Assembly (NCBI GenBank): GCA_964187785.1
Contig: OZ076409.1
Coordinates: 1,922,001 to 1,986,000, forward strand
Source of the DNA: Amphiscolops sp. MND2022
Lineage: Eukaryota
Length of the DNA: 64,000 bases
Reading direction: 5' to 3'
Part shown: positions 2,121-44,977 of the stretch, one piece after another
Numbering within the stretch: position 1 is the first letter of the stretch
Layout of the letters: each line of letters starts with the position of its first letter
Made by a program: the position numbers and the translations under genes
Notes under the pieces: model-generated
The model's database searches: none
Told to the model about the DNA's origin: nothing
Seen by the model: the letters and a program-made list of their open reading frames with translations, nothing else

Positions 2121-2537
2121 GTAAAAATTGAGTAAATTAAAAAAAATACATCCTTCATCATTTTTTTCTTTTTTTTCTGGTGTGATGAATGATTTCTTTT
2201 TTTTTGGTCAGTATTTTTGAACGAAAAAAGATCAGTGGCTTTCTACATACTAAAAATCCCACTGAAGGATTCCGTTTCATTCGAGGTGTGTTCATTAATT
2301 CGGCATCGCGTCCTGTGTTTAGTTGGCGAGTTCGAACCTCAATAAAGTTGGCATTTTTTGAAGAGAAAACTTTCAAAAGTTGTAACTCCATAGCGAAGTG
2401 TAATTTTAGCTCTTTGGTCTTTTATGCGACGGTTCAAGAATTGATATTGGCATAATTTTCGGTTTTACGTTGGATCTTCAAACGATCCCGAGAGAAGTTG
2501 TAAATGCAGAAATTTACTCAATTTCAAAGGCGTCTAG

Positions 2538-2646
2538 ATATATCTTGGACAACTACAGTCAGAATCAGCACCAATTGATTAATGTTGATCTATTGGTTTA
2601 TCTGAGCGACCAATTAAATGTCAGCAAATTCCCTCCAGATTGCCAA
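2538..2646 (+). CDS. Host gene exon: YILDNY...NVDLLVY...FPPDCQ
   Basis: tctAG acceptor in phase with the previous exon. A GT donor at 2647 avoids the in-frame TAG TGA at 2665-2670. The donor position is inferred. Confidence 0.5.
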
Positions 2647-2705
2647 GTCTTTAAAGACAATAGCTAGTGATGCTTAAACAATTGTATCTATTTATCTCGG
2701 TCAAG

Positions 2706-2738
2706 ATGTTTCAAAACGACAAAAACTCAGCAAAAAAG
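2706..2738 (+). CDS. Possible host micro-exon MFQNDKNSAKK
   Basis: caAG acceptor and AAG|GT donor, phase 0/0, link the 2538 exon to the 6442 exon. An alternative frame is also open, so this is tentative. Confidence 0.3.
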
Positions 2739-3729
2739 GTCTTCTATTTTTTTTGTAAAGAAGTCGGACATTCTGATTCAAAGTTTATCATCAGTTGAAT
2801 TGCATTTAATACACACGAAAATTTTACAAGAAGCAACTATGGTGTAGTGGTTAATACATTTTGTTAGTTTTGAAAAAAATATCGTTGAAAAAAATGCGAT
2901 GCGTCTGTGATTGTTTGAACGCATTTTATCCTTAATCAGAAGCGGTTTCTTGTTGTGATGGGCCCATCAACATTGAATTGAAAACTAACACGTTTTTGGA
3001 TGCATGAAGTCACATGAGCCCATGTTGTTCCATGTGTTTAATCAGAAACCCCGGATTGAACTCCATACAAAACAAACATGTAGATCATAATAACTTTCGA
3101 AGTCTGTCCTGTTGTTTGATGATTTTAAATGATTTGTTTTTGCTTGCGTGGACCATATCATCTCTTACCGCCCAAACTGCGGCGGCGGGGGGGATAAGAC
3201 AGAAGGTTCAAATACCATTATGTCGACATCGTTTGCGTTGAAATTTTGGTCCAATAAAGTTGTTGATGTCGACATAATCCTATGCATCACATTGACTCTC
3301 AGTTAAAAGTTGCTCATTAGATTTAATAGCGGACAAAATTTGTCTTGAACGAGGGGTCTTTTTATACCAGTTTAGCTAGTTCCAAAGGTGAATTTCTGCT
3401 ATTTTGGACAATAATATCAAAAAGTTATGGTACTTTTTTTACCTGAAGTGTCCAAACAGTTGTAGAGACAATCCTCTATGTATATACCTTCATTTAATAT
3501 TTTCTTTATTAGTGAAATAATTTTATTCAAGAACAAAATGTGCTGTCGTGTTGGGGGGATTCCCAACAAGGTGTAACTGGGAGTAAATAGATGATATGGT
3601 CCGCTTGTGTTTCTTTTCATTGAATAACAGATAAATTCCAGGTGATAGATCCGTTAGTTGAACTCAATATGCTAGCAGGGTTAGAAAAGCGTTACAAATG
3701 GTAATGTAGTTTTAAACAACATTGTTTAA

Positions 3730-4587
3730 TTAGGAGTCGGAAAAAATTTTCGACTACTTATGCAATCGTGCTGTTTTTTTTTTTCTCCCGACCTTTTCAT
3801 GAAAATTTCAAATTTCTCAAAAACTGTCCATACGATTTTCACGAAATTTTGCACAGTCATTCTACACCCAAAGGGGCCCCTGCGTGTGCAAAGGCATCAA
3901 AATCGTATGGCTGGGATGTGAGAAACATAGCCAAAATTAGCCCAAAAATGGCCAAAAAACAGCCATTTTTCGACTTTTTTCGATTTTCTCAAAAACTGTC
4001 CATACGATTCGAATGAAATTTTCTACAGTTATTCTACACCAAATTAGAGTCCTATATGTGCAGTGGCATCAAAATCGTATGGCTGGGATGTGAGAAACAT
4101 AGCCAAAATTAGCCCAAAAATGGCCAAAAAACAGTCAGTTTTCGATTTTTTTTCGATTTTCTCAAAAACTGTCCATACGATTCGAATGAAATTTTCTACA
4201 GTTATTCTACACCAAATTAGAGTCCTATATGTGCAGTGGCATCAAAATCGTATGGCTGGGATGTGAGAAACATAGCCAAAATTAGCCCAAAAATGGCCAA
4301 AAAACAGTCAGTTTTCGATTTTTTTTTTCGATTTTCTCAAAAACTGTCCATACGATTCAAACGAAATTTTCTACAGTCATTCTACACCATATTATGGTCC
4401 TTTATGTGCAATTTCATTAAATTCGTATGGCTGAGATGTGCAAAACATAGACAAATTTAGCCCAAAAATGGCCAAAAAAACAGTCATTTTTCGATTTTTT
4501 CACAAACTGTTCATACGATTCGAACGAAAGCGAGTCAGAAGGAAAAAGACTTAAGCCGACTCCTTTACCGCATATGCGGCTCTGGTT
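3730..4587 (+). mobile_element. Helentron/HINE-like repeat, family B, with an internal ~173-bp tandem array
   Basis: Sub-TIRs AGGAGTCGG ... CCGACTCCT followed by the hairpin CCGCATATGCGG. The unit gcatcaaaatcgtatggctgggatgtgag recurs at about 3894, 4066 and 4239. A second copy lies at about 53200-53933. Confidence 0.6.
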
Positions 4588-6441
4588 TCACAAATGGCCG
4601 CCTTAGTCAACGTCACACTTTCTTACCAACGCCCACCGTCTCTGGGCATGCCGAGTCATGCCCTTCGACGACGTATGCCAAATCCACTCTTCCTACGCCC
4701 GCAGTCCTGAGCTTAATTATTGCCGCGTTTCTTATGAGTTTTCGGGGTGAGTTGCGGCCACGGTATTTGAAATCTATCATACGTTTCGTAATACGATCTT
4801 ACGATGATGTCACGCCAGGCGAAGTACGGAGAGTGGTACAATCAAAGCTAAAGTTTAGGCATGATTGTGCCGCGATCGATTCACGAATTGCATGGAGATT
4901 AAACCTGGGTCAGAAAATCTAACCGTGAATTTTATCGTTTGAGAATAGTTCGTTCCCTATAAAGAACTTTATTGAATCCCGTGTGAAATATCCCGTATTG
5001 AAATAGTTGCTAAAATTGACCTCAAAAAATGAGAAAAACATCCTATTTAAAATGAACGAAGTTTCTGAAGAAAAAAAGTAAACAATTTTTTAATAATCAA
5101 AGCATCACTGATTAGACGACAGTCAAAACTTTGAGTCCAGCAACGAATCGCGATGTTTTTTGAAGACGATGACTGAACAAAAGTTCCCCTACCCAGTGTT
5201 GTAAAAAATATATACATAATATTTTTACAGTGAAATGAATGTACTTTATTTTTTCGAGGGTGAAACTAAACTAGTTCTTTAGCAGATGTCTGAACTGAAA
5301 TCTTTCTGCTTGAGAAAAAGATAAGAAAGCAGAACGGAAAAAAAAGAAGAAGCAGTAGTTTTGTGAGGGTCATCGAACAATAGTATTGACCGGTTAAACC
5401 ACTGTTGTACTGGGTTTTCGATACTAAGTCACAGCATAGAACCTGAAAAACATAAACCTGAAAGTAATCTATGCTTATCACAATCAAATATATTATTTTT
5501 CATTCTGATCGTTCGAAAATCCAATTAATTAATAGTTTATGTAACTCAAAGGATAGAATTTTCACAAATAGATCATATTTCATAACTAATGCTTTGCTTT
5601 GCTCCACAAGGAAGCTTCCCGGAATTCTGCAGTCTTATGATTAAAGAATGGAACCCCTGTTAGGTAATGAAGTTTGAAATTCTTAATGATTTTGCTAATT
5701 TCTTAAAACAATTGTTAACTTTTGCAAAATAGGATAGAATTTGAAATTTCACCCGTTTTGTCTACATAGAAAATATTGTAAATTCATTTTTTGAGTCTAA
5801 AGATAAAGCAAATTTTCAAGATTGCCTTATTCACTGACTAATTACACTCGATCAGTTTGAGGTTAACAATGTGTACATGTAAAAAGATAATCAAAAATTC
5901 GAGGTCCCAGGCATATACCCAATCTCAGTAATTGTACTGAAAAAATTTCAGTGAACATTATCGATTTTTCCGGGTAAGCTCTAAGGGCGGCAAAGTCTGA
6001 CTGTTCAATCAATTGGCAGTGGTAATTTGAAGGGCAAATTTAATTTTTTTCTGGGATATGCAAAAGCTCAAAAACTTAGATCCCAAATCAAATGTTTTTC
6101 ATTACATAGAAAGAACTTCAAGGGTAATAATATCCGCAATAATTGCCATCGTTGTTTAAAAAAAAACACGATTGTACACTATGTTAATTATCACGAAATG
6201 TTTATAATAACGCATGAAATAGCGCTTGATACTCAATAGTTTTAGAGAAATTTAACACAAATTTAAACATTAATACCAAAAAGGGGTTTCATTCTTTCAT
6301 CACAAGACTATATATATAATTGGACTCTTTTTTGTCAGCAAAATAAAGATCTTTTATACTTCGAGTTTGATCCAAAAATAGATACTTCAAATTTGGTCTC
6401 AAAAAACGCAAATGGGGGAACAGAAAAAAAATCTATGAAAG

Positions 6442-6637
6442 GTTTTTTTGGCATGGCAACATACTTGTTTACATCACTGCCCTCACCAGTTGATGAATCA
6501 ATTCTTGTTTCTCCAAGATGTCAACCTACAGAGATTCATTGGCCCTTACGACTATGTAGCCAAAACAGATCCCGACACGTTTTTAACACCCGCTTTTTTT
6601 CTGTGGAAATTTCCAGAGTCCGTAGAATTCGTTGCAG
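6442..6637 (+). CDS. Host gene exon with DxD motif: ...QLMNQFLFLQDVNLQRFIGPYDYVAKTDPDTFLTP...EFVAG (copy 1)
   Basis: Strong CAG|GTAAC donor at 6637/6638, in phase with the 40415 exon. YDYxxKTDxDxFLTP is a GT-A-like motif. The 5' boundary is uncertain (6442, 6490 or 6518). Confidence 0.7.
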
Positions 6638-6695
6638 GTAACATTTTAACAATTAAATCACAAGCGGATGAAATATCCCCCTTCAAAGTAATTTT

Positions 6696-7083
6696 CGCTC
6701 TTTTCTGTACCCCCCCCCCACCATCAATTTTTTTTTCAAAATTCAACCTGGTTGAATTCGAAGTGAAGTTTTTCCCATAATAGGATTAACTTCTATTGGA
6801 ATAGTTTTCATTTGAACAAAACATTTTTCACACAATTTGACTGTGAAAATGTTGAAAATTAACCGTTTTCTGTGACTTAAAACAGGAAGTTGTTGAGTTT
6901 TCAACAAGAATGCGTGACTTCATAACTAAAAATAGCGTGAACAAAGTTGGTTCTGAATTCTAAACTGTCATACTGAGAATGAATATAAAAGTAAAGGTTT
7001 CTAATTTAGTTCTAAGTCTTTTTGTTTCAATATTTTCACAAAATATGTTTTAGAAAAAAGGTGGTGGGGGACAGAAAAGAGCC
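6696..7083 (-). mobile_element. Merlin-like MITE (GGCTCTTTTCTGT TIR, 8-bp TSD)
   Basis: TIRs gctcttttctgtacccc / ggggacagaaaagagcc with flanks GTAATTTT/GTCATTTT. Same family as 52368-52789. Confidence 0.65.
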
Positions 7084-7298
7084 GTCATTTTAATTTTAAA
7101 TCAGAGACAGTTTCGAAAAGCAACGGCGGCGAGATTTGGTTCCTCCAAATACTTGGAACATTCGGTCAACTGCAAAAGCTTCAGTTTCTCAGAAAACTTT
7201 TTTGAGATGCTATGAAAGACAGGACCTCGGTGTACGTAAAACTCAAACACGTCAACTTCCCATTATGAAAGAAGGTTTTACTTTTAACTAGGCTAGTC

Positions 7299-7464
7299 AG
7301 TAGTAATCGAATTCCCGTTCCTTATATATAAGAAAAATTTAAGCTCGTAAAACCATTAAAAAATTAATCTTTTTTCACAAAATACCAATCAAACCATCTA
7401 AAAATTAGCCTTTTTTCGCAACTAAAAATTTAACAAAATAAAAATCGATGCACAAATTTTCCAA
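7299..7464 (+). repeat. Polinton left TIR
   Basis: AGTAGTAATCGAATTCCCGTTCCTTATATATAAG... is the reverse complement of the right end. Identity decays after about 150 bp. Confidence 0.93.
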
Positions 7465-7892
7465 AGAAACATTTGTCACAAACCAAAATTGAACTAACCT
7501 CCATCGACGTATAATAGAATTATTACCACATCGTGAAGAAATAATGAATACTTACCAAATGCGTTCAAGTAGAAAACACAAGTGTCCAAATTGAAAACGA
7601 GTTTTTTTCTTCATTTTTACCCATTAAAAAATTACATATAAAAATTGATGAACTCATTTTTCAATATAGATAAATTCACGGATGCGCACAAGTGGACACC
7701 ACAACTGTTGGAAAAATTACCACCATATAAATTTCAAACAGAATTTCACGCACCAGACGGTCGTCTGACCTTGAGGTGCATTCGGAATGCACCAAAATTT
7801 CATTTTTCACTTTTCTCTCTACAGTCACAGCAAACAGCATGGCCGAAGAAATGAAACTGGCAAAGAGACTTTTTCCATTCGGACTTTCACTC

Positions 7893-8450
7893 TTAAACAT
7901 GTAGAGATTACTAATAGATCAGGAAAAAAGCCATAACTCAACGAATATTTGAGTTAGAACAAAGTATAATATACCATTGAAAAGGTCTTGACTAGGGTTA
8001 TCTATCTAGATACAATTCAAAAACCTAGACTGAAACTATACCATCTGAAACTTCGAAAAACCTGAAACCCTTAAACATGTAGAGATTATAGAAGTTCAAC
8101 ATATCACAGTGTATGATACATCATTGGAAAGGTCATAAAAAAGAAATCATAGATGGTGATTATCTCCATGATCGGACATCCTCAGCTGAAACTATACCAT
8201 CTCAAACCTGAAACCCTTAAACATGTAGAGATTATAAAAGTTCAACATATCACAGTGTATGATACATCATTGGAAAGGTCTTGAGTTGGAGATCACAGAT
8301 TTTGAATATTTTCATGATTGGGTACCCACAACTGAAACTATACCATCTCAAACCTGAAACCCTTAAACATGTAGAGATTATAAAAGTTTAAGATATTGCC
8401 ATGTGTGATACATCATTGGAAAGGTCTTGAGTTTCTGATTACAGATTATA
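7893..8450 (+). repeat. Polinton subterminal tandem array, period 146 bp
   Basis: TTAAACATGTAGAGATTA at 7893, 8071, 8217 and 8363. Each unit contains a catcattggaaaggtc-like motif. Confidence 0.85.
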
Positions 8451-8600
8451 AAAATTTTCTTAAATGAAAAATTTATCATTCAAATCTGTGGCAAATTTTA
8501 ATACCTTACCACCACAAAATTAAAATTTTTTTCACCAATTTTTTGAAAAATTATAATTGAAAAATTTTTAATTAGACTATTTTTTCTTTAATAAATAGAA

Positions 8601-11600
8601 ATGGAGAATTGTAGTATTTGTAATTTAAATTATAAAAAAGCTTTCAAGTCTGATCATCTAAAATCAGTAAAACATCTTGAAAAATTAAATCAATATTATT
8701 GTAAAAAATGTAATTTATATATGCCTATCTCAGATAAAAGTTCTCATTTAAATTCAGATGAACATAAAAACCGCATCAATAAAATATGGTGTGAAGATTG
8801 TAGTAAATATATATCTGATACAACAAGACATTTCCAACGTGAAATTCATTTACAAAACCGTCAACAAAACGGTATGCAAAGCCAGCGAAGCTGTATTACA
8901 GATTTCGGTACAGCTTTGCTGCCCTCCGGTAATGGAGTAAAAATAATTGTGAATGAAAACACATACATTAAACTGAAAATAAATCCAACTGAAAATCTTG
9001 AAAACCGTATAAAAGAATTATTAAGTAAAAGGTACTTTCCTCGATTTAAATATCAATTGAGTTATCTTGCTAAATTTTCAAAAATAATCAATGGAGAAGA
9101 AGAAGTATTTAAAAGATGGATAAAATCAGATCTAATATATAATCACACACAACAAGATACTCATAACACATTAATACAGAAATTAGATGATGAACAATTA
9201 GAAGGATCAGGTTTTGTGTTTCAAGAAATAGAAGAAGTTATATTAGGAATATATAAAGTTAATGATATTCAAGCATCTTCATATATTGAGTTACCACCAA
9301 AATATAAAAACAGCCAATCAATAAAAAATAAAAAAAATAATGATCAATTTTGTTTTCTATGGTGTATATTAGCATATTTATTTCCAGTTGAGGATAATAA
9401 AAATATAACATCGAGTTATTCAAAACATTTTGATAAATTCAACCTAGAAGGTTTAGAAATCCCTATGAAAGTCAAAGATATTCCCAAGTTTGAAAATTTA
9501 AATATTGGACTGTGTATAAATGTATTCGAACTCACTGGAACTGTACTAACACCAATCCACGTTAACAAAAATTACTTACAACCACAAATAGATTTATTAT
9601 TATATCAAAATCACTATTGTTTAATAACAAAGTTGCATTGTCTAATAAATAAAGATTCACATATGAAACATGTATGTAGAAGACGTTTAACAGCATTTAG
9701 TTCACAACCAGTTCTAATTGATCATTTGGAAAGATGTATAAAACAACAACCAACTAAAATCACATTCAGTTGGAAGGATCAGTTAAAGTTCGAAGATTAT
9801 CATATGAAAGTCCCTGTACCAATAAGAGTATATGCTGATTTTGAATGTATCAATCAACCTCAAAACACCCCCAACGTGTTATTCAAACAAATTCCAATTG
9901 CAGTAGGATATTATGTAGTTTCACCATTCGGAAATTATTACCATTCATACTTTGGAATAGATTGTACCACGTGGTTTGTAAATAGAATGTTAACTTTAGA
10001 AAAAATTGCAAATAACTATTTTAAAACAAATTTAGAATTAGAAATAACTCCTCAATAGGAAGAATCGTTTCAACCTGCAGAAGAGTGTTGGCTTTGTGAA
10101 AAGCCACTCGGTGGTGAAAAAGTTAGAGATCATGATCATCTAACAGGAAAATACAGAGGAGCAAATCATAATATATGTAACATAAATTGTAAACAAAGGT
10201 CATCAAGTTTTGTTCCTATATTTTTCCACAACTTTTCGGGGTATGATTGTCATCTTATTTTTGAAGAACTCTTAACCGAAGCATACAATCAAAATTATAA
10301 TCCAACGATAATTCCAAAATCACTGGAAAATTATGTTAGTGTACAAGTAGGTTGTTTGAGATTCTTAGATTCATACCGATTTCTTTCTTCCAGTTTAGAT
10401 AAATTAGTTAAGAGTTTAGACAATTTTCCTATCATGAAATTGGAAGGAATGAGTGATGATTTATTCAAAAAGAAATTAGCTTATCCCTATGAATACTTAA
10501 ATCTTGATAACTTTCGGGAACCATTAAATCTAACCAAAGAAGATTATTGGTCAACATTAACACAATCTTATCCATCAGATGATGATATAAAAAGAACCCA
10601 TAAATTATTTGAAAAAAATGAAAGTAAAAATGGAAGAGAATTAACAATGTTATACTTAAAAATGGATGTTCTTCAATTTGCTGATGTATTTGAAAATTTT
10701 GTGGAAAGTTCTACACGAGAATATAAAATTAATCCTTTGTACTCTTATAGTCTACCTGGTTATACATGGAAAGCAGGATTGAAGTTGACTAAAATAAAGT
10801 TAGACTATATAAAAGATACAGCGAAGCTGCCCTCCGGTAACGAATTATTACTACTACTTGAAAATAATATCCGCGGAGGAATTTCAAGTGTAATGGGTAA
10901 TAGGCATGTGCAATCTGATGAAAATAAACAAATCTTATATATTGATGCAAATATTTTGTATGGATGGGCAATGAGTCAATACCTTCCTACTGGAGACTTT
11001 AAAAAGATAAAGCTCTGTTGTGAATATGATTCTGTACTGATGAATGAAATTAAAGAAGACATTTTTAATACACCAGATGATAATGAATATGGATTTTTTA
11101 TAGAATGTGATTTAGAATATCCTGTTGAAATTAAAGAAAAAACAAAAAACTTCCCTTTTTGTCAGTATCAAACAAAAGCAGATCCAAACTTATTCTCAGG
11201 TTATATGAATAATGTAAATCAACCTAATTACAAACCAACATCAAAACTTATATGTGATGTAACCAATAAATCGAAATATATGATACATTATAGGATGTTT
11301 AAGTTTTATCTTAACCAAGGGATGAAAGTAACGAAGATACATACTATTTATAAGTTTAAACAAAGTCCATGGTTAGGTAAATATATCGATCATAATACTC
11401 AGAAACGCACAGTAGCGAAAACAAACTTTGAAAAGGATCTTTATAAATTAATGAATAATGCTTTCTTTGGGAAGACTATGGAAAATGTAAGAGATAGAAC
11501 CAATCTAGAATTCATTGATCATTCTCAAATAGATCAAATAATAAAAAGACAATCCAAGTTAAGTTTCAAAGGAATCATGGATCATTACTCTAAGTTTTGT

Positions 11601-12398
11601 GTGTACAAGTTTGATAAAGAAAAAACAGTCTTTGATAAACCAATTTATTTAGGTTTTACAGTTTTAGAACTATCAAAACTATTAATGTATGAATTTTATT
11701 ATAACAAATTACAACCATATTGGAAACAATCCATACAACTACACTACATGGACACTGATAGTTTTATTCTGAGTTTTGATACAAACCACCAAGAACTAAT
11801 AAACTTTTTACAAGAAAACAAAGATGAATTTGATTTCAGTGAATTACACAAATCTCATGAATTATATGATCCTATTAACAAGAAAGTTATAGGAAAAATG
11901 AAAATTGAAACAAGTCCAGTTTTGGTGTTAGATACCTTCACAGCATTGCGATCAAAGTCATATTCTTTTAGTTATAATAATAATATTAATAATAATAATA
12001 ACATACAAAAAGCGAAACAAAAAGGAATACAAAAAACTCCCAAATGTGGAGAATATCAGAAATCATTGTTTAATTCAGACACATCAAGTTCTACAAATAT
12101 ATCAATTAGATCTAACTTACACAACCTTACAGTTGAAAAACAACCTAAGTTGTGTTTGAATCCTTTTGACGATAAACGTTTGTATATAAATCCAATACAA
12201 AGTTTACCATGGGATAAACACACACAAAAAGGTGATTGTCCATGTAAATATTGTTTGAAATTAATTGGTTTGTATTATAAAGAATTAACCGAAAATAAAA
12301 CAGATGAAGAAATATATTGGAGTGTTTGGTATTGGAAACAAGCACTCACCCATCAACAACTTGTGAAGTTGATAAGTGATCGAGCACATGTTTTATAA
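8601..12398 (+). pseudogene. Protein-primed family B DNA polymerase (pPolB) with N-terminal zinc fingers and an endonuclease VII-like domain; one in-frame TAG at 10056-10058
   Basis: ORFs 8601-10058 and 10356-12398 share a frame and the gap is open (CWLC...VRDHDHLTGKYRG..H..CN). Motifs: YADFE, HNFSGYD, FLDSYRF, IRGG, YIDAN.LYG, KLMNNAFFGK, YMDTDS. Confidence 0.95.
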
Positions 12399-12522
12399 AA
12401 ATAATATTTAATTTTTTATTTATATTTATAATTATTATCATTTTATAAAAATAAATATATTATTTTATAAATTTATTTATCATATCAGCAAAGCTGTATT
12501 AATATATTTAAATTATATTTAT

Positions 12523-13752: not shown

Positions 13753-13813
13753 TTAAATAGGAATAAAAATTAGGATTTAAAATTTATACTGATTTTATTT
13801 TTACTTAAAATAT

Positions 13814-14335
13814 TTATCCTAAAAAAGTAAACTCAGAATTTAGTTTAGTTTTATTTGTTTTATATAGATCGTAAGTTTGTTTTAATTTGTTGTATTCATT
13901 CAGACCAATTTTATTGTCTTCTAAACATTTTGAATGTAGTTTTTGGTAGTCGTGTAGTGTTCTACCAGCAAGAGTATATTTTTTGATATTTTGTTGTTCT
14001 TTTATTTTCAGGTACTCTCCAGCAATTTTACTGATTATACATAAACCTGCACCTATACCACTTGCTATAGGTACAACAACAAGTCCAACTCCTGTGACAC
14101 TCAACGTGACACATGTTGATGATACTGCTAGTACTGAAACTCCATCAATAGATTGAATTAAACCGTTTATAATTTTATATATTTTAGATTTCTTTTTATA
14201 CTTTTTAGCTTCATGATTATAAAAATTTTGAATATCTTTTATATTTTGAATTGAATTAGTAAAACTATTTATTTCTTTTAATCTAAGATCAAGATTCTGA
14301 TCTTGTTGTAAACATGGGTACAATTTTTCACTCAT
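13814..14335 (-). CDS. Conserved Polinton membrane protein with two hydrophobic helices
   Basis: LYP.L...LRL.EI N-terminus, basic patch, Gly-rich hydrophobic hairpin (VTLSVTGVGLVVVPIASGIGAGL) and C-terminal L.D.KI...EY. Resembles from memory the ORF labelled gasderminX in adintovirus annotations. Confidence 0.65.
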   Translation of the reverse strand: MSEKLYPCLQQDQNLDLRLKEINSFTNSIQNIKDIQNFYNHEAKKYKKKSKIYKIINGLIQSIDGVSVLAVSSTCVTLSVTGVGLVVVPIASGIGAGLCIISKIAGEYLKIKEQQNIKKYTLAGRTLHDYQKLHSKCLEDNKIGLNEYNKLKQTYDLYKTNKTKLNSEFTFLG

Positions 14336-17150: not shown

Positions 17151-17154
17151 ATGA

Positions 17155-34400: not shown

Positions 34401-37400
34401 CAAAGAGTGCTATACCGAACTACAGAGTGGTACCGGAAATGTCACATTCCTCTGGGAAATTGTACAACCAAAACAAGCCTCTCTTCAGTTTCGACAACCC
34501 CACGAGATATCTTCGTCCCATGAGAGTGGCCCTGTTACAGTCCGCGCCCAGCCTGGATTGTGATTGCCAAGAGGCGCAGTTTGGCCGTGATCATGGATGC
34601 ATTATGAAAACAGTTAGACTATATTACTAAACTGAAATAAACTGTGACAAGTTAAAACCAACAAAATCTAAATTATAAATAATTTCAGAACTTGAAACAT
34701 TCCGAATTAATTTCACACATTTCCGGACATACGTAGTGATGACAGTAGAATTTTAATCATTTTCCTGCAAAATACAACCGAGACAAAACATTGGAATCAC
34801 CTGTCGCAAAAAGAACGAAACTACGTCTACATTTAGAAATAAAGAAAACAAAAACAAATTGATACCCAATTGATTGACGGTAAAATACTTCCCTAACATC
34901 ATCTCTTTCATTTTATCAAGCCCCCGAGAACCATTCGTCCTATGAGAGTGGCCCTGTCACAGTCCGCGCCCGGACTGGATTGAATTAAAAACAAACTAAA
35001 ACTAATTTAGGTCACTTCTTCGCCTATACGATTGAATTTGCGTCGCGACTACGTCAATGCATTGGCGGCTAGCTAGAATTTCATTCCAAAATGTGACGTC
35101 AGCATCTCGTCTAACTTGGCAGCTAGTCAGAATATCATTCCAAAATGTGACGTCAGCATCTCGTCTAACTTGGCAACTAGCTAGAAAGTATTCCAAATCA
35201 GACGACGATATGACGTCACAGCTATGGCAGCTAGCTAATTTTCATTCCAAATTTACGTCCACACTACGTCTACTATATCGACGGACTAAGTCTAATACTA
35301 ATACGTACGTCCACGTTACGTCGCAAATCCATCAAAATAGCTGTTTTAATCCATCCAAAAAACCACATTTACGTCCACGCTACGTCCACTATAATGGAGG
35401 ACTAAGTCTAATACCAATTTTACGTCCACTCTACGTCCCAAATTTATGAAATTAGGCGTTTTAGTCAGTATTAAATTTAAAAGAAGCTTTATTTTACTAC
35501 GGTAAAACTAATCGAAGCTAGGATATGAATCAACGTCAACACTACGTCGCAATTTAATTACCCAAACCCAATGTTGAGTCCAAGTCGGTATTGCGTCGAC
35601 TAAGATTCAATTTGAACGGAATATGGTATTTAAGCCAAAATTTTTCAGACTGACTTAAAATAACAGTGTTTTAACACTATTTAAAATGGAGAGTCACAGT
35701 TTATCTTCAAATTGTGTTAATAAAGTGCAGTCTAAGCAGGTTTTTTAAATTATGCTCTTATTACCTAATTTATTAAATTCATCGGCTGTTTGACGATGTA
35801 AAGTCGTCTTTTATTGTTGCTCAAAGGTGTTGCTCTCAACTTTAATCAGATAAATAATTGTTAATTGGTCGTAACATGGTGACAGGAGTTTTGGACCTTT
35901 CAACAAATGTACCCAAAAAAACCTCAGCATAAACTACGTCCAAACATCGTCCCTCCACATTGTGGATGCTCTTCGCCCTGGAAATGAAAACAAACCTACA
36001 CCAACCCAACGCCAAATTGTCAAAGAAACTTCGCGAACTCGTCGACCGTGAGAATCTTGACCCAAGACGCAGCTTCACCAAAAAACGATATTGGAATCAA
36101 CAACAATTTCAAAGTGAAATTAACCCAGAAGAACGACGGCTCCGTCTACATAAAAAGACTCGCCAGAACCCATCAATCTCATAGCAGACCTCACAGACCC
36201 TCCCATTCTTCAAACCCGCAAACCAAATAATTGAGCAACATAACCCAAAAGGCAAATGGAGACTTGTTGACCTACTGATGATAAACCAGTTGAAATTCGA
36301 CGACTGCAACAACCACAACTATCCCGTCAGTACATCGTCAGATGCAGTCCAACACTTGTCGAGGACATCGATTACCACAACACGTGGTTCCAAAAGCTGG
36401 CATCATGCTCTTTGGGTGATTCCAGAGACAGTTAAATTATTTCACATCCGTAAGTTTAAAAAAGTAGAATCTTCCTGATGCTGAGTTGTGCGTTAGAAAG
36501 ATGACAATGGCATAGTCGCTGAAGCACACATTCCCGAGGAGACGCGTCAGAAAATCTAAGCTGTGGAAATACTGATAGAGTAGGCCACTCTGTCATAAGT
36601 ATTAAACACAAAAGCTTAATGGAACGGGGAATGTAACAAACCTAAGGGTTGTTGAATATCCAGCGCGCCGGCGTCACTAATACGCACATCTCCCTCAGAG
36701 CACAAACATGAGCCTTATTATCACTTTGCACATCATGGTCTTTTAAGATCATATGGATCTGAGAATGACCGAGTTCAAAGAGCCCATAAATACTGACGTC
36801 ATCAAAACGGTGACAAAACCAAAAGTTGGCTAATTACCAACGAAATTGACGTCGGCATAACGTCGACACAAAGGTTATCAGGGTTAAGAATTAATCCTAT
36901 AACCTATAATGACGTCATCAAAGCGGTGACAAATTCAAAAGTTAGCTATGCTAACGAAATTGACGTCAGCAAAACGTTGACAACTTGGTCAAACGAATTA
37001 ATTTAATTCGTGGCCAATAAAAACATGACGTTGGCAAAACGTCAACACCTGGGACTACAAAGGAATTAAAAAACAGCTTCTACCACCTCCCAAAGAGTGC
37101 TATACCGAACTACAGAGTGGTACCGGAAATGTCACATTCCTCTGGGAAATTGTACAACCAAAACAAGCCTCTCTTCAGTTTCGACAACCCCACGAGATAT
37201 CTTCGTCCCATGAGAGTGGCCCTGTTACAGTCCGCGCCCAGCCTGGATTGTGATTGCCAAGAGGCGCAGTTTGGCCGTGATCATGGATGCATTATGAAAA
37301 CAGTTAGACTATATTACTAAACTGAAATAAACTGTGACAAGTTAAAACCATCAAAATCTAAATTATAAATAATTTCAGAACTTGAAACATTCCGAAATAA

Positions 37401-39452
37401 TTTCACACATTTCCGGACATACGTAGTGATGACAGTAGAATTTTAATCATTTTCCTGCAAAATACAACCGAGACAAAACATTGGAATCACCTGTCGCAAA
37501 AAGAACGAAACTACGTCTACATTTAGAAATAAAGAAAACAAAAACAAATTGATACCCAATTGATTGACGGTAAAATACTTCCCTAACATCATCTCTTTCA
37601 TTTTATCAAGACCCGAGAACCATTCGTCCTATGAGAGTGGCCCTGTCACAGTCCGCGCCCGGACTGGATTGAATTAAAAACAAACTAAAACTAATTTAGG
37701 TCACTTCTTCGCCTATACGATTGAATTTGCGTCGCGACTACGTCAATGCATTGGCGGCTAGCTAGAATTTCATTCCAAAATGTGACGTCAGCATCTCGTC
37801 TAACTTGGCAGCTAGTCAGAATATCATTCCAAAATGTGACGTCAGCATCTCGTCTAACTTGGCAACTAGCTAGAAAGTATTCCAAATCAGACGACGATAT
37901 GACGTCACAGCTATGGCAGCTAGCTAATTTTCATTCCAAATTTACGTCCACACTACGTCTACTATATCGACGGACTAAGTCTAATACTAATACGTACGTC
38001 CACATTACGTCGCAAATCCATCAAAATAGCTGTTTTAATCCATCCAAAAAACCACATTTACGTCCACGCTACGTCCACTATAATGGAGGACTAAGTCTAA
38101 TACCAATTTTACGTCCACTCTACGTCCCAAATTTATGAAATTAGGCGTTTTAGTCAGTATTAAATTTAAAAGAAGCTTTATTTTACTACGGTAAAACTAA
38201 TCGAAGCTAGGATATGAATCAACGTCAACACTACGTCGCAATTTAATTAACCAAACCCAATGTTGAGTCCAAGTCGGTATTGCGTCGACTAAGATTCAAT
38301 TTGAACGGAATATGGTATTTAAGCCAAAATTTTTCAGACTGACTTAAAATAACAGTGTTTTAACACTATTTAAATTGGAGAGTCACAGTTTATCTTCAAA
38401 TTGTGTTAATAAAGTGCAGTCTAAGCAGGTTTTTTAAATTATGCTCTTATTACCTAATTTATTAAATTCATCGGCTGTTTGACGATGTAAAGTCGTCTTT
38501 TATTGTTGCTCAAAGGTGTTGCTCTCAACTTTAATCAGATAAATAATTGTTAATTGGTGAAATACTCAATTGTTTAGCCTCATGTAAATCAGTCACTCTC
38601 TTAGCATCTCTAAATTGCCTAAATCAAAATAATTAGGCATAATTTTCTTCAAGTAAAAATTCAAAATCAGGTATTAGTTGTTCACGGCAGCGTCATCTCG
38701 GCGTCGGTTTCTTACGAACCAAAGCAGAAAAACGGGGAAATATTTCCGGTTTGACAGACTGAAGTAATATCTACTTCCTGCTTGGGAGGAAACAAAAGGA
38801 CGCCGGAATGAAATGATATGATCATGGTTGATGACTAATACTAGATTAGAATTGCCGTGTCTTAAAAATTGACGAAATGCTGACGAAGATCAAAATTTTG
38901 CCGCAAAGATACAGGAAGTGACTAATATCTCGATGGAAATTAAAGTACGCGAGTATGAACAGAGGATGCTAGGAGGGTATATATAGCTCGTACCTGTAAA
39001 CTTATTCATTCAATTTCTGATTCAATCTGCTGTCTTGTATCAAATTCTACTTTGTTTTGGTAAAACAATTACTCTGCAAACTTCAATTCAAATGAATAAA
39101 TCCGAAAATCTTTTCATCAAGAGAAGCTAGAAAAGAAGAATGTCCTTCAGAAAAGCAGCAAAAATAATCAGAAGTGTACAGAACATCGACTCTAACCGGA
39201 GTCGTAACAGTAGTTACGCATTTTTGATGAAGAAATCAACAGCTTCCTGTTTTGAGTCATCGATAAACACTCAATACGAACATAATTATAGTCAAAATGT
39301 GTGAACAATGTTTTGTTCAAGCGGAAAACTACTCTAATGGAAGTTAACTTCCTGTTATGAAAGAAGGTTTTGATTTTAATTAGGCTAGTCCAAAGTTTTT
39401 GAGGAAAGTTATTTTCAAAAATTTTGGTGGTGGGGGAAAACAGAAAAGATCC
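31444..39452 (+). mobile_element. Merlin-like MITE split by the LTR element (31444-31620 and 39215-39452)
   Basis: The two halves join to match the intact copy at 52368-52789. Confidence 0.75.
31621..39209 (+). mobile_element. Non-autonomous LTR retrotransposon (LARD-like) with three LTRs: 31621-33186, 34955-35876 (shortened), 37644-39209
   Basis: TGTCAC...GTAACA ends and 5-bp TSD GTAGT (31616-31620, 39210-39214). PBS-like TGGTGACAGGAG follows LTR1 and LTR2. Two near-identical ~1.77-kb internal regions lack pol. Confidence 0.88.
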
Positions 39453-39688
39453 AAAATCTACAAAACTTCAAGGCCTAAAATTGCCGCCAAACATTTTCAA
39501 GCAGCTCAATAAAAGTTAATTACAACGGGGAAATATTTTCGCATGAAACATCCGTAAGAATTTCAGAAAATCAATAACAATAAAAGTTGCTGGCAACATT
39601 AAAGTACATGCAAAAAGTTCAAGCAGTTTCAACAAGGGTAGATCCATTTAAATACTGCCCGTGATAATTTTTCAGACTTTGAAATGTA

Positions 39689-40384
39689 CTAGGTGAACCA
39701 ACAGAACAAACGCATGAAAGTTTTCGTGTTTTCAAAATTTCAAATTATTGTCAACAAACGTTTCAAAACAACATTGAACGCAGCTGTCAATCATTCGAAT
39801 TAGCTACGTTTCTCAGAAGCGAAAAGGTTTTCACCAGAAAGCTAGACAGAAATGACTGGTCAAGCAAGGTATCTAATTATTAATATTTTTCATAATTCAA
39901 ACCATCTTCAGTTGGAGATATATGATACGGAATATGAGCTTCAATTATAATAATTGAGAGAAAAAATGAAGGGTTTTTAGTGCCTTGTTTACAAACAGTA
40001 CAATTTTGAAGACTCAATTTTTAGTTCACCTACTAGGTGAACCAAAAAACGGATTGCACAAATAATTCACACTTCAAAATTGTATAATTTGTAAACACGA
40101 CACTGAAAATCTTTCACTTTTTCTGTCAATTATCCTCTGATTAGATAATCAGATCTTCACCAAAGAATAATACGAACTTCAGAAAACGTCTAGACGTCTT
40201 TACCAGTCATTTCGTTCACACTTTTGATGTGTGAAAGTTCATTTGCTTCGAAGAAAAGTTGTCAAAGTGAATGACTGACAAGCTGAATCGCATCTTCAGT
40301 GTTGTTTTGAAACATTTGTTGACAAATATTCGAAACTTTGAAAGCTCAAAGAATTTCATGTGTTCCGTTTTTTGGTTCACCTAG
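39689..40384. mobile_element. Two adjacent MITEs with CTAGGTGAACC TIRs and TA flanks (39689-40032, 40033-40384)
   Basis: TA|CTAGGTGAACCA...TGGTTCACCTAG|TA. A third copy lies at 51346-51671. Confidence 0.75.
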
Positions 40385-40414
40385 TAACAAAAATCAGAAA
40401 TAACTGTTTTTTAG

Positions 40415-40621
40415 GCTGGGGCGCCTACTCGAATCGGGTCAACAAGAAAGTTTTGGCAAGAATGGCGAACGAGTTGGGGTGGAAAAGACGCGGTTTGAGG
40501 AATATTGGGTCAACTTGGATTGTGAAACAACATCTTTTCATACCTCTGCTCAACAAAACCGCCTTTGCAACAGATTTCGTCTTCAAAAACTGCAGAAACG
40601 ACACGAAATACCCCGAGATAG
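40415..40621 (+). CDS. Host gene exon: GWGAYSNRVNKKVLARMANELGWKRRGLRNIGSTW...YPEIG
   Basis: ttttttAG acceptor; phase 1 matches the donor at 6637/25437. G|GTCTAG donor; phase 1 matches 44037. Confidence 0.8.
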
Positions 40622-41624
40622 GTCTAGTTTTTTCAAGTCGATTATAAAATATAATTTCTTTATTTAAAAGTTCAAATATCAATGCTCAGATTACTTAAAT
40701 ACTATGTGGCCTAAAAATCAAAATTGGTAGCAAACTAAAAAATTATATTCACCTTTTTTGTGAGTATTAAAAGAAGGTTTCACATTTTGGTAGCAATTTT
40801 GGAATCTTGGCCCAAGAATCACAATAAAAACGGAATTTCGATATGTTCAATTTCACAGCGATTTGCTCGCTACTAAGTGTTCTGAAAACAAACATGAACA
40901 CATAGCTCTGAAAGATGCAGCGTTGCAAAGCATTGAACAATTTAAACACGATGAGATATTTTTCCATGCAAAAGAATCTCTTCTTTAGCACCTTTTGTAT
41001 TGTGTAATGATACAAAGATTTTCGCCTGTAACTGGTCGATACCAGGTTCTCTCTATTCACCATTTTTTGGCCTTATGCAAGTCCTTCATCCTTAAATTCA
41101 TCAGTATGATCATGGCGAAATTTTAGAGCCAAACCTTTGAAAATTTCCTAATTAAATTAAGAAAAATTATTTTTTTTCACAAGATTTCGAATTTGTTGCC
41201 CCCCTTTATTCCAATGGAGCACTTTCACTAAACCATCGGATACTGTGACTATACTGATTTACGGACTATACAAATATATTTCAGACGTTAAACTAATGTT
41301 TAGGCAAGATGATTGCTAGCTGTTAATTTTTCACTTTCAAAGATTGCCGAAAATCATATGAATTCTGACCCATATTAAGTGAAGCTAGTTTCTGCTCTAA
41401 TCGTTTACAGAAAATAAAATAGTTTTTAGCGAGGCCTCTTGGCAAAACTAGTTCCTGTTGTCATGCATGTTTCATTCAAATATTTTCATGCTTAAAAAGA
41501 ACATGGCTATTCATGGCTACAATTCGGATGAAGCCGTTTACTTAGAACAGCACCGCGTCCACCCGATTTACCGTTTTTAGTCGGCGCTTTTCTAGTGAAA
41601 AGAGCCCGACTATTACAGTGGCTA

Positions 41625-42536
41625 CCCTGTGTTCGAAGCCGCCATGGTACCCTTGCCAAGATCCATGGCAATTTCCTTGCTAGCCTTGCCAAGATCTTGC
41701 CATGATCTTGCCATGATCTTGGCAAGGATACCATGGCCATGCAAGATCGTGCAAAGGCTAACCATGATTAACCATGATCTTGGCAAGGGTTCCATGGTAT
41801 CATTAGCAAAACTTTTGGAAAATTCAGAGCTCTTGTTTTCAAATTATACCTAAAACCTAAAAGTATCTAGTATCTAAAAACTTTTTCGAACCAAAAAACA
41901 GACATATATAGGGTTAAACAGAAGACAAACTGATACTCAAGAAATTGAAGGAAAAAATGTTTTTGCTCCGACCATTTAAGTTTTTATTTTTATTGCATTC
42001 TCGAACTTCAGTAATTAGAATCCGATACCTCAATAGATAAGGTAATAGGATGATTTGCGTAATTGTAAACAAATCGTAGCTAGAAAAGTTGGTTTTCACA
42101 CCGAAATCGCAAACCCGCAAGTTGCCATAACTTGATTCGGAGTTTGCATTGTATGATAATTTATGAAGTAGTAACAATGTCGTGTTCTCAACTAACAAAA
42201 CTCGGTCAATAGGTGCATCAAATTATTGAGCAAGTTTTGGATAATATTCATTTAAAAAACTATTTTCGATCAATAAATTTTATGTCCGAAATTATTACAA
42301 TAGCTACTTCAGAAATTGCAGACGACGAGGAAATTTTGCGAAAAGAATAAATTATGCACAATTAATACCAGCTTACATGTCCTACCATGGTTATCTTGTC
42401 AAGATCTTGCCATGATCTTGACAAGCGTTCCATGTATCATGATCTGCCATGATCTTGAAAAAGGTACCATGGTTTACCATGATTTAGCAAGATTTACCAT
42501 GATCATGGCAAGCGTTCCATGGCTTCGAACACTGGG
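41625..42536. mobile_element. MITE/foldback element with CCC(A/T)GTGTTCGAAGCC TIRs and subterminal ATCTTGCCATG repeats
   Basis: TA|CCCTGTGTTCGAAGCC ... GGCTTCGAACACTGGG|TA. Confidence 0.75.
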
Positions 42537-44036
42537 TAGTTTTTTTCGTCAGACTACAATCTTCACCCTGATTGGTCCACTTTCCTTCCAACAGAAACTA
42601 CTAAAACTACTAAGGCCTAAGGCCAAGTCGGGCCAGGGAAACTTTGTGCAAAGGGTCCCCCTTTCCATTTTTTACTTTTTCAAGGAAACCTACAAAACCG
42701 GATGTCCCAAAGGGTGCCCCTTTTAATTGTTTACTTTTTTAACGTACATACAAAACCGGACGAGACTAAATGGTCCACCCTTTCGATTTTTTCGGCACTA
42801 TGAGACTTGTTTCTCAAAATTTACTAATGTCTCCAAAGGGCCCCTTCCTTTTTTTGATTTTTTGCAACTGAATGGGTGTTGAAAAAGCCCAAAGGGTCCC
42901 CCTTTTACAATTTTTGGCATTGAGTTTTTTCTAAATGATAATTTCTTGTTCTCAAAAAATGTTTTCTTTTCAGTTTTCCAAAAACTTTGCGCTTTTTGAG
43001 CCTTATATATAGCGCTAACTTTAGACGTTCTCGTCTTATTTGTCTTTCGTATCATTTCTTTCACTTGAATAATTGAATTACTAAAGAATGAGCTAACAGA
43101 ACCAATGAAAAAACAAGGCGCCCGCTAAACACCGGGATATTTTCCGTCTTGTCAAAAAAATCAGGTGGGGCGAGATTTGAACACACAACCTACTGATTGA
43201 TAGTAACTGAAATAGTCAAGTAACTAAAATAGTCAAGTAGTGGATGGAGATCGTGGAGATTTAGCTGAATTTACTACTAGTAAATTCTACTACTAGAATT
43301 TACTACTAGAATTTAGCTACTAATAGTAACTCCTTGACTATTTTAGTTATTAGTAACAATAAAAGTAGTGAAGTAGTGGTGGATGGAGATCGGAGAGATT
43401 TGGCAGAATTTAGAAAAAAAACGCAGAACAGATCTTGATTTTCCTCCCCCATCAAATGTGGGCGGTGAATAATAAAACAATAGCTCTATTTTTTTGAAAA
43501 TTGAAACAATTAGAAAATAGGCATTTGAAAAACAGTTTTTGAAGCAGTGTCGATTTTAAGGTGGAGGCTACCACTTCCAATTCGAAAAAAATTTTCTGAG
43601 TATATTCACTGCAGTCTTTCATCCGACCCCCTAGCAAAAAGTCCTGGAAACACCACCGTTATCAAGCGATTTAATAGTCCCCCCTTTCATTTTTACTTTT
43701 CCAAGGAAACCTACAAAACCGGACGGGACTAATTTTTTTCGGCACTGTGCGACTTTTTTTCGAAAGTTTTTTAATGTTCCCAAAGGGTCCCCCCTTTGAG
43801 TTTTTTGTTATTTTGCAGCAGAATGTATGTTTATAAATCAAAAATGTTCCCCCCTTTTACATTTTTCAGCACTTGCGACATTTTTCGAAAGATAAAAACA
43901 TCAAAAACTTCAAGTTTTTTTCCAAAAAAATGTTTTGCGCTTTTTGAGCCTTAGATATAGCGCCGACTTTAGACGTTCTCTTCTTGTTTTTCTAAAAGCG
44001 CCGACTAAAAATTGGTTGAAAAAACTTGGTTGAAAG

Positions 44037-44205
44037 GTCAATTCTTGGTGGATGACCCGGAGTTGGGCAGTTGGCCCCAGTGGTGGTGTCCGGTCAGCTC
44101 CATGTACGGCGGTGACCTCGCGGTTCAAGACACCTTCCCGCAGTTGACATCCGAGGTCAATCACCCCAGAAACACTCTGGACTCTCATTCCAGCAGCTTT
44201 AGAAG
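44037..44205 (+). CDS. Host gene exon: GQFLVDDPELGSWPQWWCPVSSMYGGDLAVQD...LDSHSSSFR
   Basis: GC-rich coding-like island with an aAG acceptor in phase. The 3' end is either 44155 (GT donor) or 44205 (GA donor, preferred). Confidence 0.75.
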
Positions 44206-44977
44206 GAACCATGCTTACTCATTATCATCATGATCATCTACATAATTTCAATGTAACCGCTGTTTCACAGAAAACGATAGCTGGTCAAAAAATTTAATGA
44301 ACTAAAGGTCCGTTGGACAATGTTTCTTTACCCAATTCAATCCAACCCCCCTTGCTGTGTCGACATCGCTTACTTTGAAATTTTGCTTACAATGAAATAA
44401 TTGATGTCGATATAATCCGATCTTTTATACATTAATCCATAGTTAAAAGTTGCTCATTTCATTTATGGCGGGAAAAAATGAAACAGCGGCTTTCCAATAC
44501 AATTCTAACTTGTTCGAGGGTGTTATTATGTTTATGAGACAAGTAAAAAGATGGAAGATCGGAATAGCGCTTAAAAGTCACATCAAACTTTGAACGGGAA
44601 AACCCATCCTTGTTAAGGATACAGCACTTAACACCGGATATTACGAAGGTACTTCAATAAAATCGAAAGGGGAGCATTTGAAGACAAAAAAAGTTCGAAA
44701 AAAAGTCTCACAGTGCCGAAAAAAATTGGAAAGGAGACCCTTCAGTCTCGTCAGGTTTTGTATGTTACGTTTAAAAAGTAAAAAATGAAAGGCCCTTTGC
44801 GATAGCTTAGACGCGTCTCCCAGGTATTCCTTTATTTGAACAAACTGATTAAAAATTTCGTCGCATCGAGTCATTTTTTTAAAAACGAGTAACTGTAATA
44901 TTCGGGTTCTGTTATTATTAAAAGCGCCGACTAATAAATCATAACAATTAATTTTATAAGAAGCATGGTTCGTGAAG

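Follow-up and report, generated by a model that had tools for sequence, protein, structure and literature searches.

The window analysed here, a stretch of 64,000 nucleotides from contig OZ076409.1 of Amphiscolops sp. MND2022, contains on its + strand a host gene of the DUF7164 family (glycosyltransferase-like). We mapped seven exons and six introns in this gene, one intron more than the five counted in an earlier sequence-only reading of the same DNA. An intronless paralog from the same genome (L001), near-identical to the database protein P0007, served as the reference for the intron borders, and joining the exons at the six predicted junctions gives an uninterrupted reading frame of 352 codons. 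Two of its exons, E and F, exceed the curated Pfam DUF7164 cut-off of 27 bits (42.5 and 41.8 bits, respectively), and the genome as a whole holds 26 exon-level matches to DUF7164.

Exon A (2029..2120) comprises the part that tblastn aligned to paralog residues 102-134 (P0007/L001), and its start is that of the aligned part. It is followed by intron W1 (2121..2537; 417 nt), which has GT-AG borders at the top-scoring junction, and by exon B (2538..2666), found by tblastn and open in the spliced model. For intron W2 (2667..5122) GT-AG borders are possible in frame and leave the frame open; alternative AG-AG borders at 2666-5115 are likewise in frame. Exon C (5123..5195) was placed by tblastn together with junction modelling, and the GT-AG intron W3 (5196..6489) separates it from exon D (6490..6637), identified by tblastn. 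A second copy of exon D, at 25290-25437, lies within a 1.8-kb duplication; the duplicate has 96.1% identity overall, and the exon copy shows 0 differences in 148 nt. Intron W4 (6638..40414), with GT-AG borders and a T-rich acceptor, spans 34 kb and contains a Maverick/Polinton-like element, duplications and 2.7-kb tandem repeats; an intron matching it in position and phase is present in two paralog lineages. Exons E (40415..40621; profile positions 155-213, E=4e-11) and F (44037..44205; positions 230-274, E=7e-11) were each found by both the Pfam profile and tblastn, and between them lies the GT-AG intron W5 (40622..44036), whose acceptor is the sole AG nearby. Intron W6 (44206..44977) is predicted to have GA-AG borders with an ambiguity of 4 nt. 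Its removal restores exactly the residue count of the paralogs, and neither a GT nor a GC donor is possible in frame.

Exon G (44978..45218), which includes the stop codon, was found by tblastn and covers Pfam DUF7164 profile positions 279-348. A protein search with this exon gave 11 matches, among which P0003, P0005 and P0007 are the only true relatives. The other eight were judged spurious, being long proteins (878-3105 aa) none of which matches the window; P0001, the one of the eight that was inspected, is a long repeat protein. No protein derived from a transcript of this gene came to light among the matches.

Pairing of the intron ends

Three introns of this gene carry perfect inverted repeats beside both splice sites, a different one in each, and all six arms lie exactly where the sequence-only reading had placed them: 14 nt in W1 (2125-2138 / 2511-2524), 11 nt in W5 (40626-40636 / 44016-44026) and 11 nt in W6 (44206-44216 / 44961-44971). 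We also obtained the same offsets, the left arms starting at intron positions +5, +5 and +1 and the right arms ending 13, 10 and 6 nt before the intron end, respectively. That reading had credited the two other large introns with weak pairing only. W4 is the sole one of the six window introns in which comparison of the end windows gave no pairing; W2 has perfect 10-nt arms (2666-2675 / 5100-5109) and W3 has 12-nt arms with one mismatch (5194-5205 / 6468-6479). Folding of the whole introns W1 and W6 gave the terminal helix in the centroid as well as the minimum-energy structure, and the predicted fold of W6 extends its helix into the flanking exon ends (z=-2.05). In W5 the true end pair ranked 15 of 300 when set against end-by-interior window pairs. 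Rfam and tRNA scans of the window gave no matches, indicating that no known RNA gene includes the arms. The interior of W6 contains a further perfect inverted repeat of 11 nt.

To estimate how often such arms arise by chance we drew 57,592 random pairs of 40-nt windows, 200-5000 nt apart, from the 64-kb window. Perfect inverted repeats of 11 nt or longer were present in 58 of these pairs (0.10%), those of 14 nt or longer in 7 (0.012%). At a rate of 0.10% per pair, the probability that three of six introns reach at least 11 nt is of the order of 1e-8.

The comparison was extended to a family set of 19 modelled introns, six of them from the window gene and 13 from paralogs that lie on five further chromosomes (contigs C3, C6, C8, C11 and C12); this set omits the C11k junction (paralog residues 362 to 402), both disruptions of the C3e2 paralog (a frameshift and a transposon) and the partial matches C3l and C3e. 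When the first 40 nt of each intron were compared with the last 40 nt, a perfect complement of 9 nt or more was found in 9/19 true pairs and in 3/342 mismatched pairs. Mean duplex energy was -18.0 kcal/mol for the true pairs versus -9.6 for the mismatched ones (p=8e-9). The true pair was also within the best 5% of end-by-interior window pairs from the same intron in 13 of the 19, although one of these 13 stands at exactly 5.0% and another is based on 8 comparisons only.

As controls we used 25 introns, seven from HSC70 paralogs, six from an mtHSP70-like gene and 12 from actin paralogs; six further introns, from one HSP110-like gene, an HSP70-like gene on C3 and a Wnt gene, are excluded from this set. 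End pairing was absent from the 25 (true pairs -8.7 versus -9.8 kcal/mol for 600 mismatched pairs, p=0.94), the longest perfect end complement among them was 7 nt, and family and control end-pair energies differ (p=2.8e-6). End pairing is thus a property of an intron class, seen here in the DUF7164 family and shown in one gene family only, and not the genome-wide means of defining introns that had been proposed from the window. The controls likewise reject chance matches as the source of the arms. The sequence is 65% A+T, which would favour such matches, and the extra repeat in the interior of W6 could be taken as an example of one; against this stand the empirical 11-nt match rate of 0.1% per window pair and an excess that is repeated in the paralogs and absent from the controls, and we regard chance as a negligible explanation.

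Splice signals also differ between the two sets. All 25 control introns have GT-AG borders, whereas the 19 family introns comprise 13 GT-AG, four GC-AG, one GA-AG (W6) and one GG-AG (C3j1). A G at +5 was found in 7/19 family introns versus 16/25 controls, and the pyrimidine share upstream of the acceptor was 0.54 in the family versus 0.64 in 13 HSP70 introns (p=0.049). The weakness of the signals noted earlier from the window is borne out in part. In-frame GT-AG or GC-AG is available at 17 of the 19 family junctions, and every one of the 19 introns ends in AG.

Possible origins of the paired introns

The DUF7164 family is probably horizontally acquired and intron-poor. Two of its paralogs (L001 and L002) are intronless, and intron positions are mostly paralog-specific. 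Fresh inserts of the same build also occur: in the C3e2 paralog a 9-nt direct repeat surrounds long inverted ends within an exon, and an HSC70 paralog has a 16-kb insert with a 10-nt inverted repeat and a 3-nt direct repeat at its bounds, for which we found no usable splice sites. These observations, together with the geometry of the arms, make derivation from transposons with terminal inverted repeats the better supported half of what the sequence-only reading had suggested. We give roughly an even chance to the reading that insertions bounded by terminal inverted repeats were turned into spliceosomal introns, with the repeats persisting as RNA clamps.

Under this proposal, DNA with short terminal inverted repeats would insert into an exon of a gene that at first had few introns. 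The inserts would be non-autonomous cut-and-paste transposons of several low-copy families. An insertion would persist only where a left end starting with G and a nearby downstream AG permit its in-frame removal by the spliceosome. In the pre-mRNA the arms might then pair as a helix of 9-14 bp, looping out an intron that is now stuffed with repeats and bringing its weak splice sites near each other. Derivation from transposons, removal of these introns by splicing and an aid to splicing from the helix are our inferences. Against the last of these, in half of the cases the helix would bury the donor site and so should hinder rather than help binding of U1.

Arms could be defined in 12 introns. 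Their left arms begin at positions from -1 to +7, in seven cases from -1 to +1, and their right arms stop 4-13 nt short of the acceptor. When the donor G comes from the left arm, the last base of the right arm is its complement, C, so that the AG has to come from elsewhere, and this left/right asymmetry is as predicted for the ends of an element. Target-site duplications are less clear, as the comparison of cognate with non-cognate flank matches across these 12 introns was not significant (p=0.066). Convincing direct repeats adjoin the arms in two introns only, W3, where the 8-nt stretches directly outside the arms agree at 6/8 positions, and C3f1 (5/6). Elements of the hAT type produce an 8-bp target duplication and have short inverted ends starting Y-A-R-N-G. 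The arms of W2 and W3 start with a pentamer that fits this pattern, and a search for a transposase or a sister copy by which these two introns could be recognised as hAT relics found neither.

Copy number was assessed with a search of the 1.07-Gb genome that ignores very common words and scores top candidates only. W1 with its flanks gave its self match only, so that the whole intron is single-copy by this search. The first 510 nt of W2 are single-copy, a high-copy repeat beginning near 3150; W3 has single-copy ends with repeats nested inside; and W6 has single-copy ends around a nested SINE-like repeat (44617-44937) with >4,900 candidate copies. Nested repeats in the window introns are 16-30% diverged from their other copies. 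Because the ends are single-copy, no transposon family can be named, and these are not introners in the strict sense of many near-identical copies in unrelated genes, contrary to the introner-like origin suggested earlier.

A different account would be that transposons inserted into dying or dead copies of a redundant family, that nothing is spliced and that in-frame junctions simply reflect a once continuous frame. The family does include pseudogenes: C3e2 has a frameshift and a transposon in its exon, and the C8g and C3j matches contain stops. The insert in the HSC70 paralog, without usable splice sites, and the lack of GT or GC donors in W6 and C3j1 point the same way. We nevertheless find this account improbable. 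The window gene has kept 352 codons open over six interruptions despite the divergence of the repeats nested in them, and GT-AG or GC-AG in frame at 17/19 junctions is not what it would lead one to expect. In W3, removal of the element together with its flank repeat would be out of frame, whereas GT-AG splicing is in frame. Moreover, the tandem paralogs C12a1 and C12a2, which have a clamped intron in common, show dN/dS=0.30 at dS=0.077, that is, purifying selection on this one pair. The open frame of the window gene, the identity of exon D to its copy and this ratio together make the genes look functional, in which case the inserts must be removed.

We consider it unlikely, if less so than the decay of dead copies, that the helices are RNA structures which arose and were maintained by selection as an aid to weak, expanding introns, with no transposon origin. 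Evidence for this comes from the intron at paralog position 252, common to C6h and C12a (a clade with support 96/92) and to the window gene (W4). In C6h and C12a it has the same position and phase but unrelated arms, and in the window gene it has none. It follows that not all arms are relics of the founding insertion, a point against the reading that we favour. Against this argument in turn, the only stretch common to the C6h and C12a introns is 138 nt of a repeat with >2,500 candidate copies, so that position and phase are the sole evidence of their homology. Selection would also fit the G-U pairs in the helices of C12a2, C3j1 and C6h1, the single-copy ends, and arms that are perfect around interiors filled with old nested repeats. 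Against it, point mutation is an unlikely route to perfect complements of 9-14 nt, arms starting from +1 would occlude the donor, the arms show the asymmetry of element ends, and arm mismatches have no clear G-U bias (three G-U, one A-C, five transversion). Between C12a1 and C12a2 one change was found in 18 arm positions, which equals the expectation under neutral drift and gives no evidence of constraint on the arms.

A more far-reaching reading is that of a young intron class recognised via its intron-specific terminal helix and not via splice-site sequences, in an animal whose ordinary introns are canonical. This we hold to be speculative and rather improbable. If it were true, GA-AG and GG-AG borders would be usable, arms at a homologous position could be replaced or could change in a compensatory way (as at 252 in C6h versus C12a), and RNA-structure-defined splicing or euglenid-like excision would exist in Metazoa.

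Significance and comparison with known systems

The origin of new spliceosomal introns in animals is still argued, and to our knowledge clear metazoan cases of transposons becoming introns are few, those of larvaceans being the main one. Within this one genome the DUF7164 family provides a compact series: intronless copies, copies with fresh transposons in exons, and copies whose inserts resemble settled introns, their frames being intact and under purifying selection. Should the junctions be confirmed in transcripts, it becomes testable whether short terminal helices enable weak or non-canonical sites such as GA-AG, whether selection keeps the helices, and whether this is a route by which an intron-poor family, probably of horizontal origin, acquires introns. 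Annotation is affected as well: such genes will be broken by gene finders that allow GT-AG only.

In the larvacean Fritillaria borealis, passages of a recent preprint (bioRxiv 10.1101/2025.08.15.670264) describe transposon-derived non-canonical introns in repeated families, with GT-AG at <10% of introns. The present case differs from that description in its ordinary control introns and in the single-copy ends of its introns. A search of this genome for cellulose synthase found no match, which is weak evidence against a tunicate host, and a search for HPAT was likewise negative.

A further comparison is with the nonconventional introns of euglenids, for which sections of Milanowski et al. 2016 (PMC4770533) describe a stable structure joining intron and exon ends, species- or clade-specific positions, mostly non-canonical borders and a removal thought to be non-spliceosomal; 'intermediate' introns with GT-AG borders and end pairing are described there as well. 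A comparable structure-guided excision, with the helix and not the dinucleotides setting the cut sites, would accommodate the GA-AG (W6) and GG-AG (C3j1) borders with their strong terminal helices and the predicted W6 helix that runs into both exon ends, and variable borders, end pairing and species-specific positions are euglenid features too. We judge it very unlikely here, however. Only 2/19 family introns lack a GT or GC donor, 13 GT-AG and four GC-AG being far above the expectation for arbitrary borders, and AG is kept in every case. The arm offsets are variable, in contrast to the fixed euglenid pairing of +4 to +6 with -8 to -6 given in the same source (PMC4770533), and the host is an animal, as the presence of Wnt in the genome shows, with ordinary control introns.

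Introners of Micromonas and Aureococcus and the symmetrical (stw)introns of Hypoxylaceae, as presented in parts of two publications (PMC8469720, PMC11282704), are likewise introns at new positions with terminal inverted repeats or internal symmetry, but are there described as many near-identical copies, whereas each intron studied here has its own short arms and unique sequence. For the Hypoxylaceae (stw)introns, the passages concerned give repeats of 45-55 nt and report flanking duplications as absent (PMC8469720).

Comparable too are the introners of the parasitic dinoflagellate Amoebophrya (A25/A120), which occur genome-wide with non-canonical borders dominant, according to portions of Farhat et al. 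2021 (PMC7789003). Short direct repeats are described there over the exon/intron borders (the corresponding signal here has the p=0.066 given above), as is a predicted hairpin joining the exon ends, and the arms of 9-14 nt across our family set lie within the 8-20 nt of the repeats that link Amoebophrya introner ends. In the same portions those elements are portrayed as having no family-specific repeat motifs, most being unassignable to a transposon family, and the same organisation is noted in some canonical introns (PMC7789003). Compared with that account, the introns described here belong to an animal, have GT-AG or GC-AG at 17 of 19 borders and are found in one gene family.

The host gene and its exon map

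The inverted repeats lie in a single gene on the plus strand that matches the Pfam model DUF7164, with bit scores of 42.5 for exon E and 41.8 for exon F against a cut-off of 27. For mapping its exons we used as reference L001, an intronless paralog from the same genome that is near-identical to database protein P0007. This placed exon A at ∼2029-2120, exon B at 2538-2666, exon C at 5123-5195, exon D at 6490-6637, exon E at 40415-40621, exon F at 44037-44205 and exon G at 44978-45218, separated by six introns (W1 to W6 in order), and the spliced model has an open frame of 352 codons. A feature-based look-up, which serves as a lead only, placed DUF7164 beside hydroxyproline O-arabinosyltransferase-like glycosyltransferases and found the nearest clusters most frequently in rotifers and oomycetes. 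At least a dozen copies were observed in the genome, two of them intronless, and it is possible that the family was acquired horizontally and gained introns afterwards.

The window has an A+T content of 65% and occupies C1:1922001-1986000 in a 1.07-Gb assembly. Since Wnt proteins are encoded, the genome is that of an animal; Wnt loci number only about four and score low (the best reaches 163 bits over 270 profile positions), and one of them is nearly intronless, which suggests a fast-evolving lineage. The window also holds a Ty3-type LTR retrotransposon (56257-61607) with identical LTRs of 203 nt and a single open frame of 1609 codons with domains for protease, RT, RNase H and integrase, which looks like a very recent insertion. 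A SINE-like repeat of ∼325 nt at 44617-44937, with similar pieces near 42650-43045, 43680-43990 and 1370-1690, is represented in the genome by thousands of candidate copies, about 81-84% identical to it. ARAGORN found no tRNA and Rfam gave no match over the window.

Paired intron ends in the DUF7164 family

The sequence-only reading had described perfect inverted repeats at the ends of three introns, and all three are exact: 2125-2138 with 2511-2524 in W1 (2121-2537), 40626-40636 with 44016-44026 in W5 (40622-44036), and 44206-44216 with 44961-44971 in W6 (44206-44977). The borders of the first two are those of GT-AG introns by homology, while those of W6 are the sole in-frame solution by homology, with a residue count equal to that of the paralogs; because the site offers neither a GT nor a GC donor, W6 reads GA-AG, with a positional ambiguity of 4 nt. 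Two further repeats had been missed, namely a perfect 10-nt repeat in W2 (2667-5122; arms at 2666-2675 and 5100-5109) and a 12-nt repeat with one mismatch in W3 (5196-6489). As an estimate of chance, 57,592 pairs of 40-nt windows were drawn at random from the window; 0.10% of them had a perfect complement of 11 nt or longer, and 0.012% had one of 14 nt or longer. The terminal helix is retained in both the minimum-energy and centroid folds predicted for the whole introns W1 and W6, and in W6 the predicted helix extends into the exon ends.

The 34-kb intron W4 (6638-40414) is the only one in the gene in which an end repeat is absent. It contains a Maverick/Polinton-like element (7299-21502) whose inverted ends (7299-7473 and 21327-21502) are 92.6% identical and which includes a capsid-like double-jelly-roll ORF on the minus strand (12526-13752), with several long ORFs around it. 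The start of this element is exactly where the first copy of a 1.8-kb duplication (5498-7298 and 24296-26111) that takes in exon D stops. Tandem repeats of ∼2.7 kb, with identity of up to 99.7%, occupy 31621-39209.

Run against the whole genome, the Pfam model gave 26 exon-level matches on six contigs (C1, C3, C6, C8, C11 and C12). Mapping the paralog junctions against L001 yielded a family set of 19 modelled introns, including one tandem duplicate, C12a2. When the first and last 40 nt were compared, perfect complements of 9 nt or more appeared in 9 of 19 true pairs and in 3 of 342 mismatched pairs; with the tandem duplicate removed, this length was still reached in 9 of 18 introns. Mean duplex energy was -18.0 kcal/mol for true pairs and -9.6 kcal/mol for mismatched pairs (Mann-Whitney p=8e-9; 19 introns). 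To allow for local composition, the true end pair was also compared with windows from the intron's own interior; it ranked within the best 5% in 13 of the 19.

It had also been proposed that end pairing may define introns in this genome, and as a general statement this fails, since pairing is lacking in 25 control introns: seven from HSC70 paralogs, which have one common intron position, six from an mtHSP70-like gene and 12 from actin genes, the last located by coordinates. The donors of the HSC70 and mtHSP70-like introns are consensus-like and their acceptors T-rich, and no end pairing was seen in them. Perfect end complements in the 25 controls reached at most 7 nt, and true pairs (-8.7 kcal/mol) were no more stable than 600 mismatched pairs (-9.8 kcal/mol; p=0.94). 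Family and control introns differ at p=2.8e-6. End pairing is a property of an intron class, and a genome-wide clamp is not supported.

Origin of the clamped introns

Intron positions in the DUF7164 genes are mostly specific to one paralog and two copies are intronless, so the majority of these introns are gains. The best available reading, to which we give about an even chance, is that they derive from transposons. Arms are clearly defined in 12 introns. Their left arms begin between intron positions -1 and +7 (-1 to +1 in seven), and their right arms end 4-13 nt short of the acceptor. Such asymmetry would be expected of the termini of an inserted element: the left end would provide the donor G and the right end would then close on the complementary C, which is unable to provide AG, so that the next downstream AG would be used. 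The arms of W2 and W3 begin with a pentamer that we take to fit the end pattern of hAT elements. In W3 the 8-nt flanks directly outside both arms agree at 6 of 8 positions; across the 12 introns, direct repeats in the flanks showed no significant gain in cognate over non-cognate pairs (p=0.066).

The sequence-only reading had suggested, as an alternative, that the introns are transposon-derived and introner-like. Its transposon component stands as the reading we prefer, while introners in the strict sense are ruled out, because the intron ends of the window are single-copy in the genome and only nested interior repeats are multi-copy.

Two other loci contain inserts. An exon of the DUF7164 copy C3e2 (L024) holds a transposon (locus ∼5765-6210) with inverted ends of ∼27 nt and a 9-nt direct repeat, and lies close to a frameshift; this copy is likely a pseudogene. 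An HSC70 paralog (L051/L052, C3:36747297 to 36763225) is split by a 16-kb insert bounded by a 10-nt inverted repeat, in which one position is G-U, and by a 3-nt direct repeat; the reading frames are open on either side, and the insert has no usable splice sites, there being no GT-AG pair. Both are fresh insertions of the same build as the clamped introns.

One intron, at paralog position 252, is common in position and phase to the window gene, C6h and C12a, the latter two being paralogs that form a clade (support 96/92). Its arms are unrelated between C6h and C12a and absent in the window copy, and the only sequence common to these introns is a high-copy repeat. Either an intron can acquire its arms later, or the site was hit more than once. 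An RNA structure maintained by selection, with no transposon origin, is also conceivable but unlikely in our view.

Splicing and comparison with known systems

Splicing of the family introns was judged by indirect evidence only. The window gene keeps its 352-codon model open. The borders of the family introns comprise 13 GT-AG, four GC-AG, one GA-AG and one GG-AG, and at 17 of the 19 junctions a GT-AG or GC-AG pair keeps the frame. In W3, GT-AG splicing preserves the frame, whereas excising the element with its flank repeat would shift it. Exon D shows 0 differences from its second copy across 148 nt, within a duplication that is 96.1% identical overall, and the tandem pair C12a1/C12a2, which have a clamped intron in common, give dN/dS=0.30 at dS=0.077. 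That the introns are unspliced insertions inside decaying gene copies seems to us a poor prospect, though a better one than non-spliceosomal, structure-guided excision, which we consider very improbable. We infer that the helix may aid splicing; it would bury the donor site in half of cases. The arms of C12a1 and C12a2 differ by a single change that yields a G-U pair, and one such change is also expected under neutral drift. The reach of these findings is limited to one gene family, in which splicing is predicted.

Several known intron types resemble this class. The symmetrical (stw)introns of Hypoxylaceae have repeats of 45-55 nt and form repeated families (PMC8469720), and in the animal Fritillaria borealis splice sites match transposon terminal repeats (bioRxiv 10.1101/2025.08.15.670264). 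Euglenid nonconventional and intermediate introns likewise show end pairing and clade-specific positions but, unlike the DUF7164 introns, they are described as pairing at fixed positions and lacking canonical borders (PMC4770533). The closest description we found is that of the Amoebophrya introners, which are reported to be without family-specific motifs: inverted repeats of 8-20 nt link one end of an intron to its other end, the borders carry short direct repeats, and a hairpin brings the exons together (PMC7789003).
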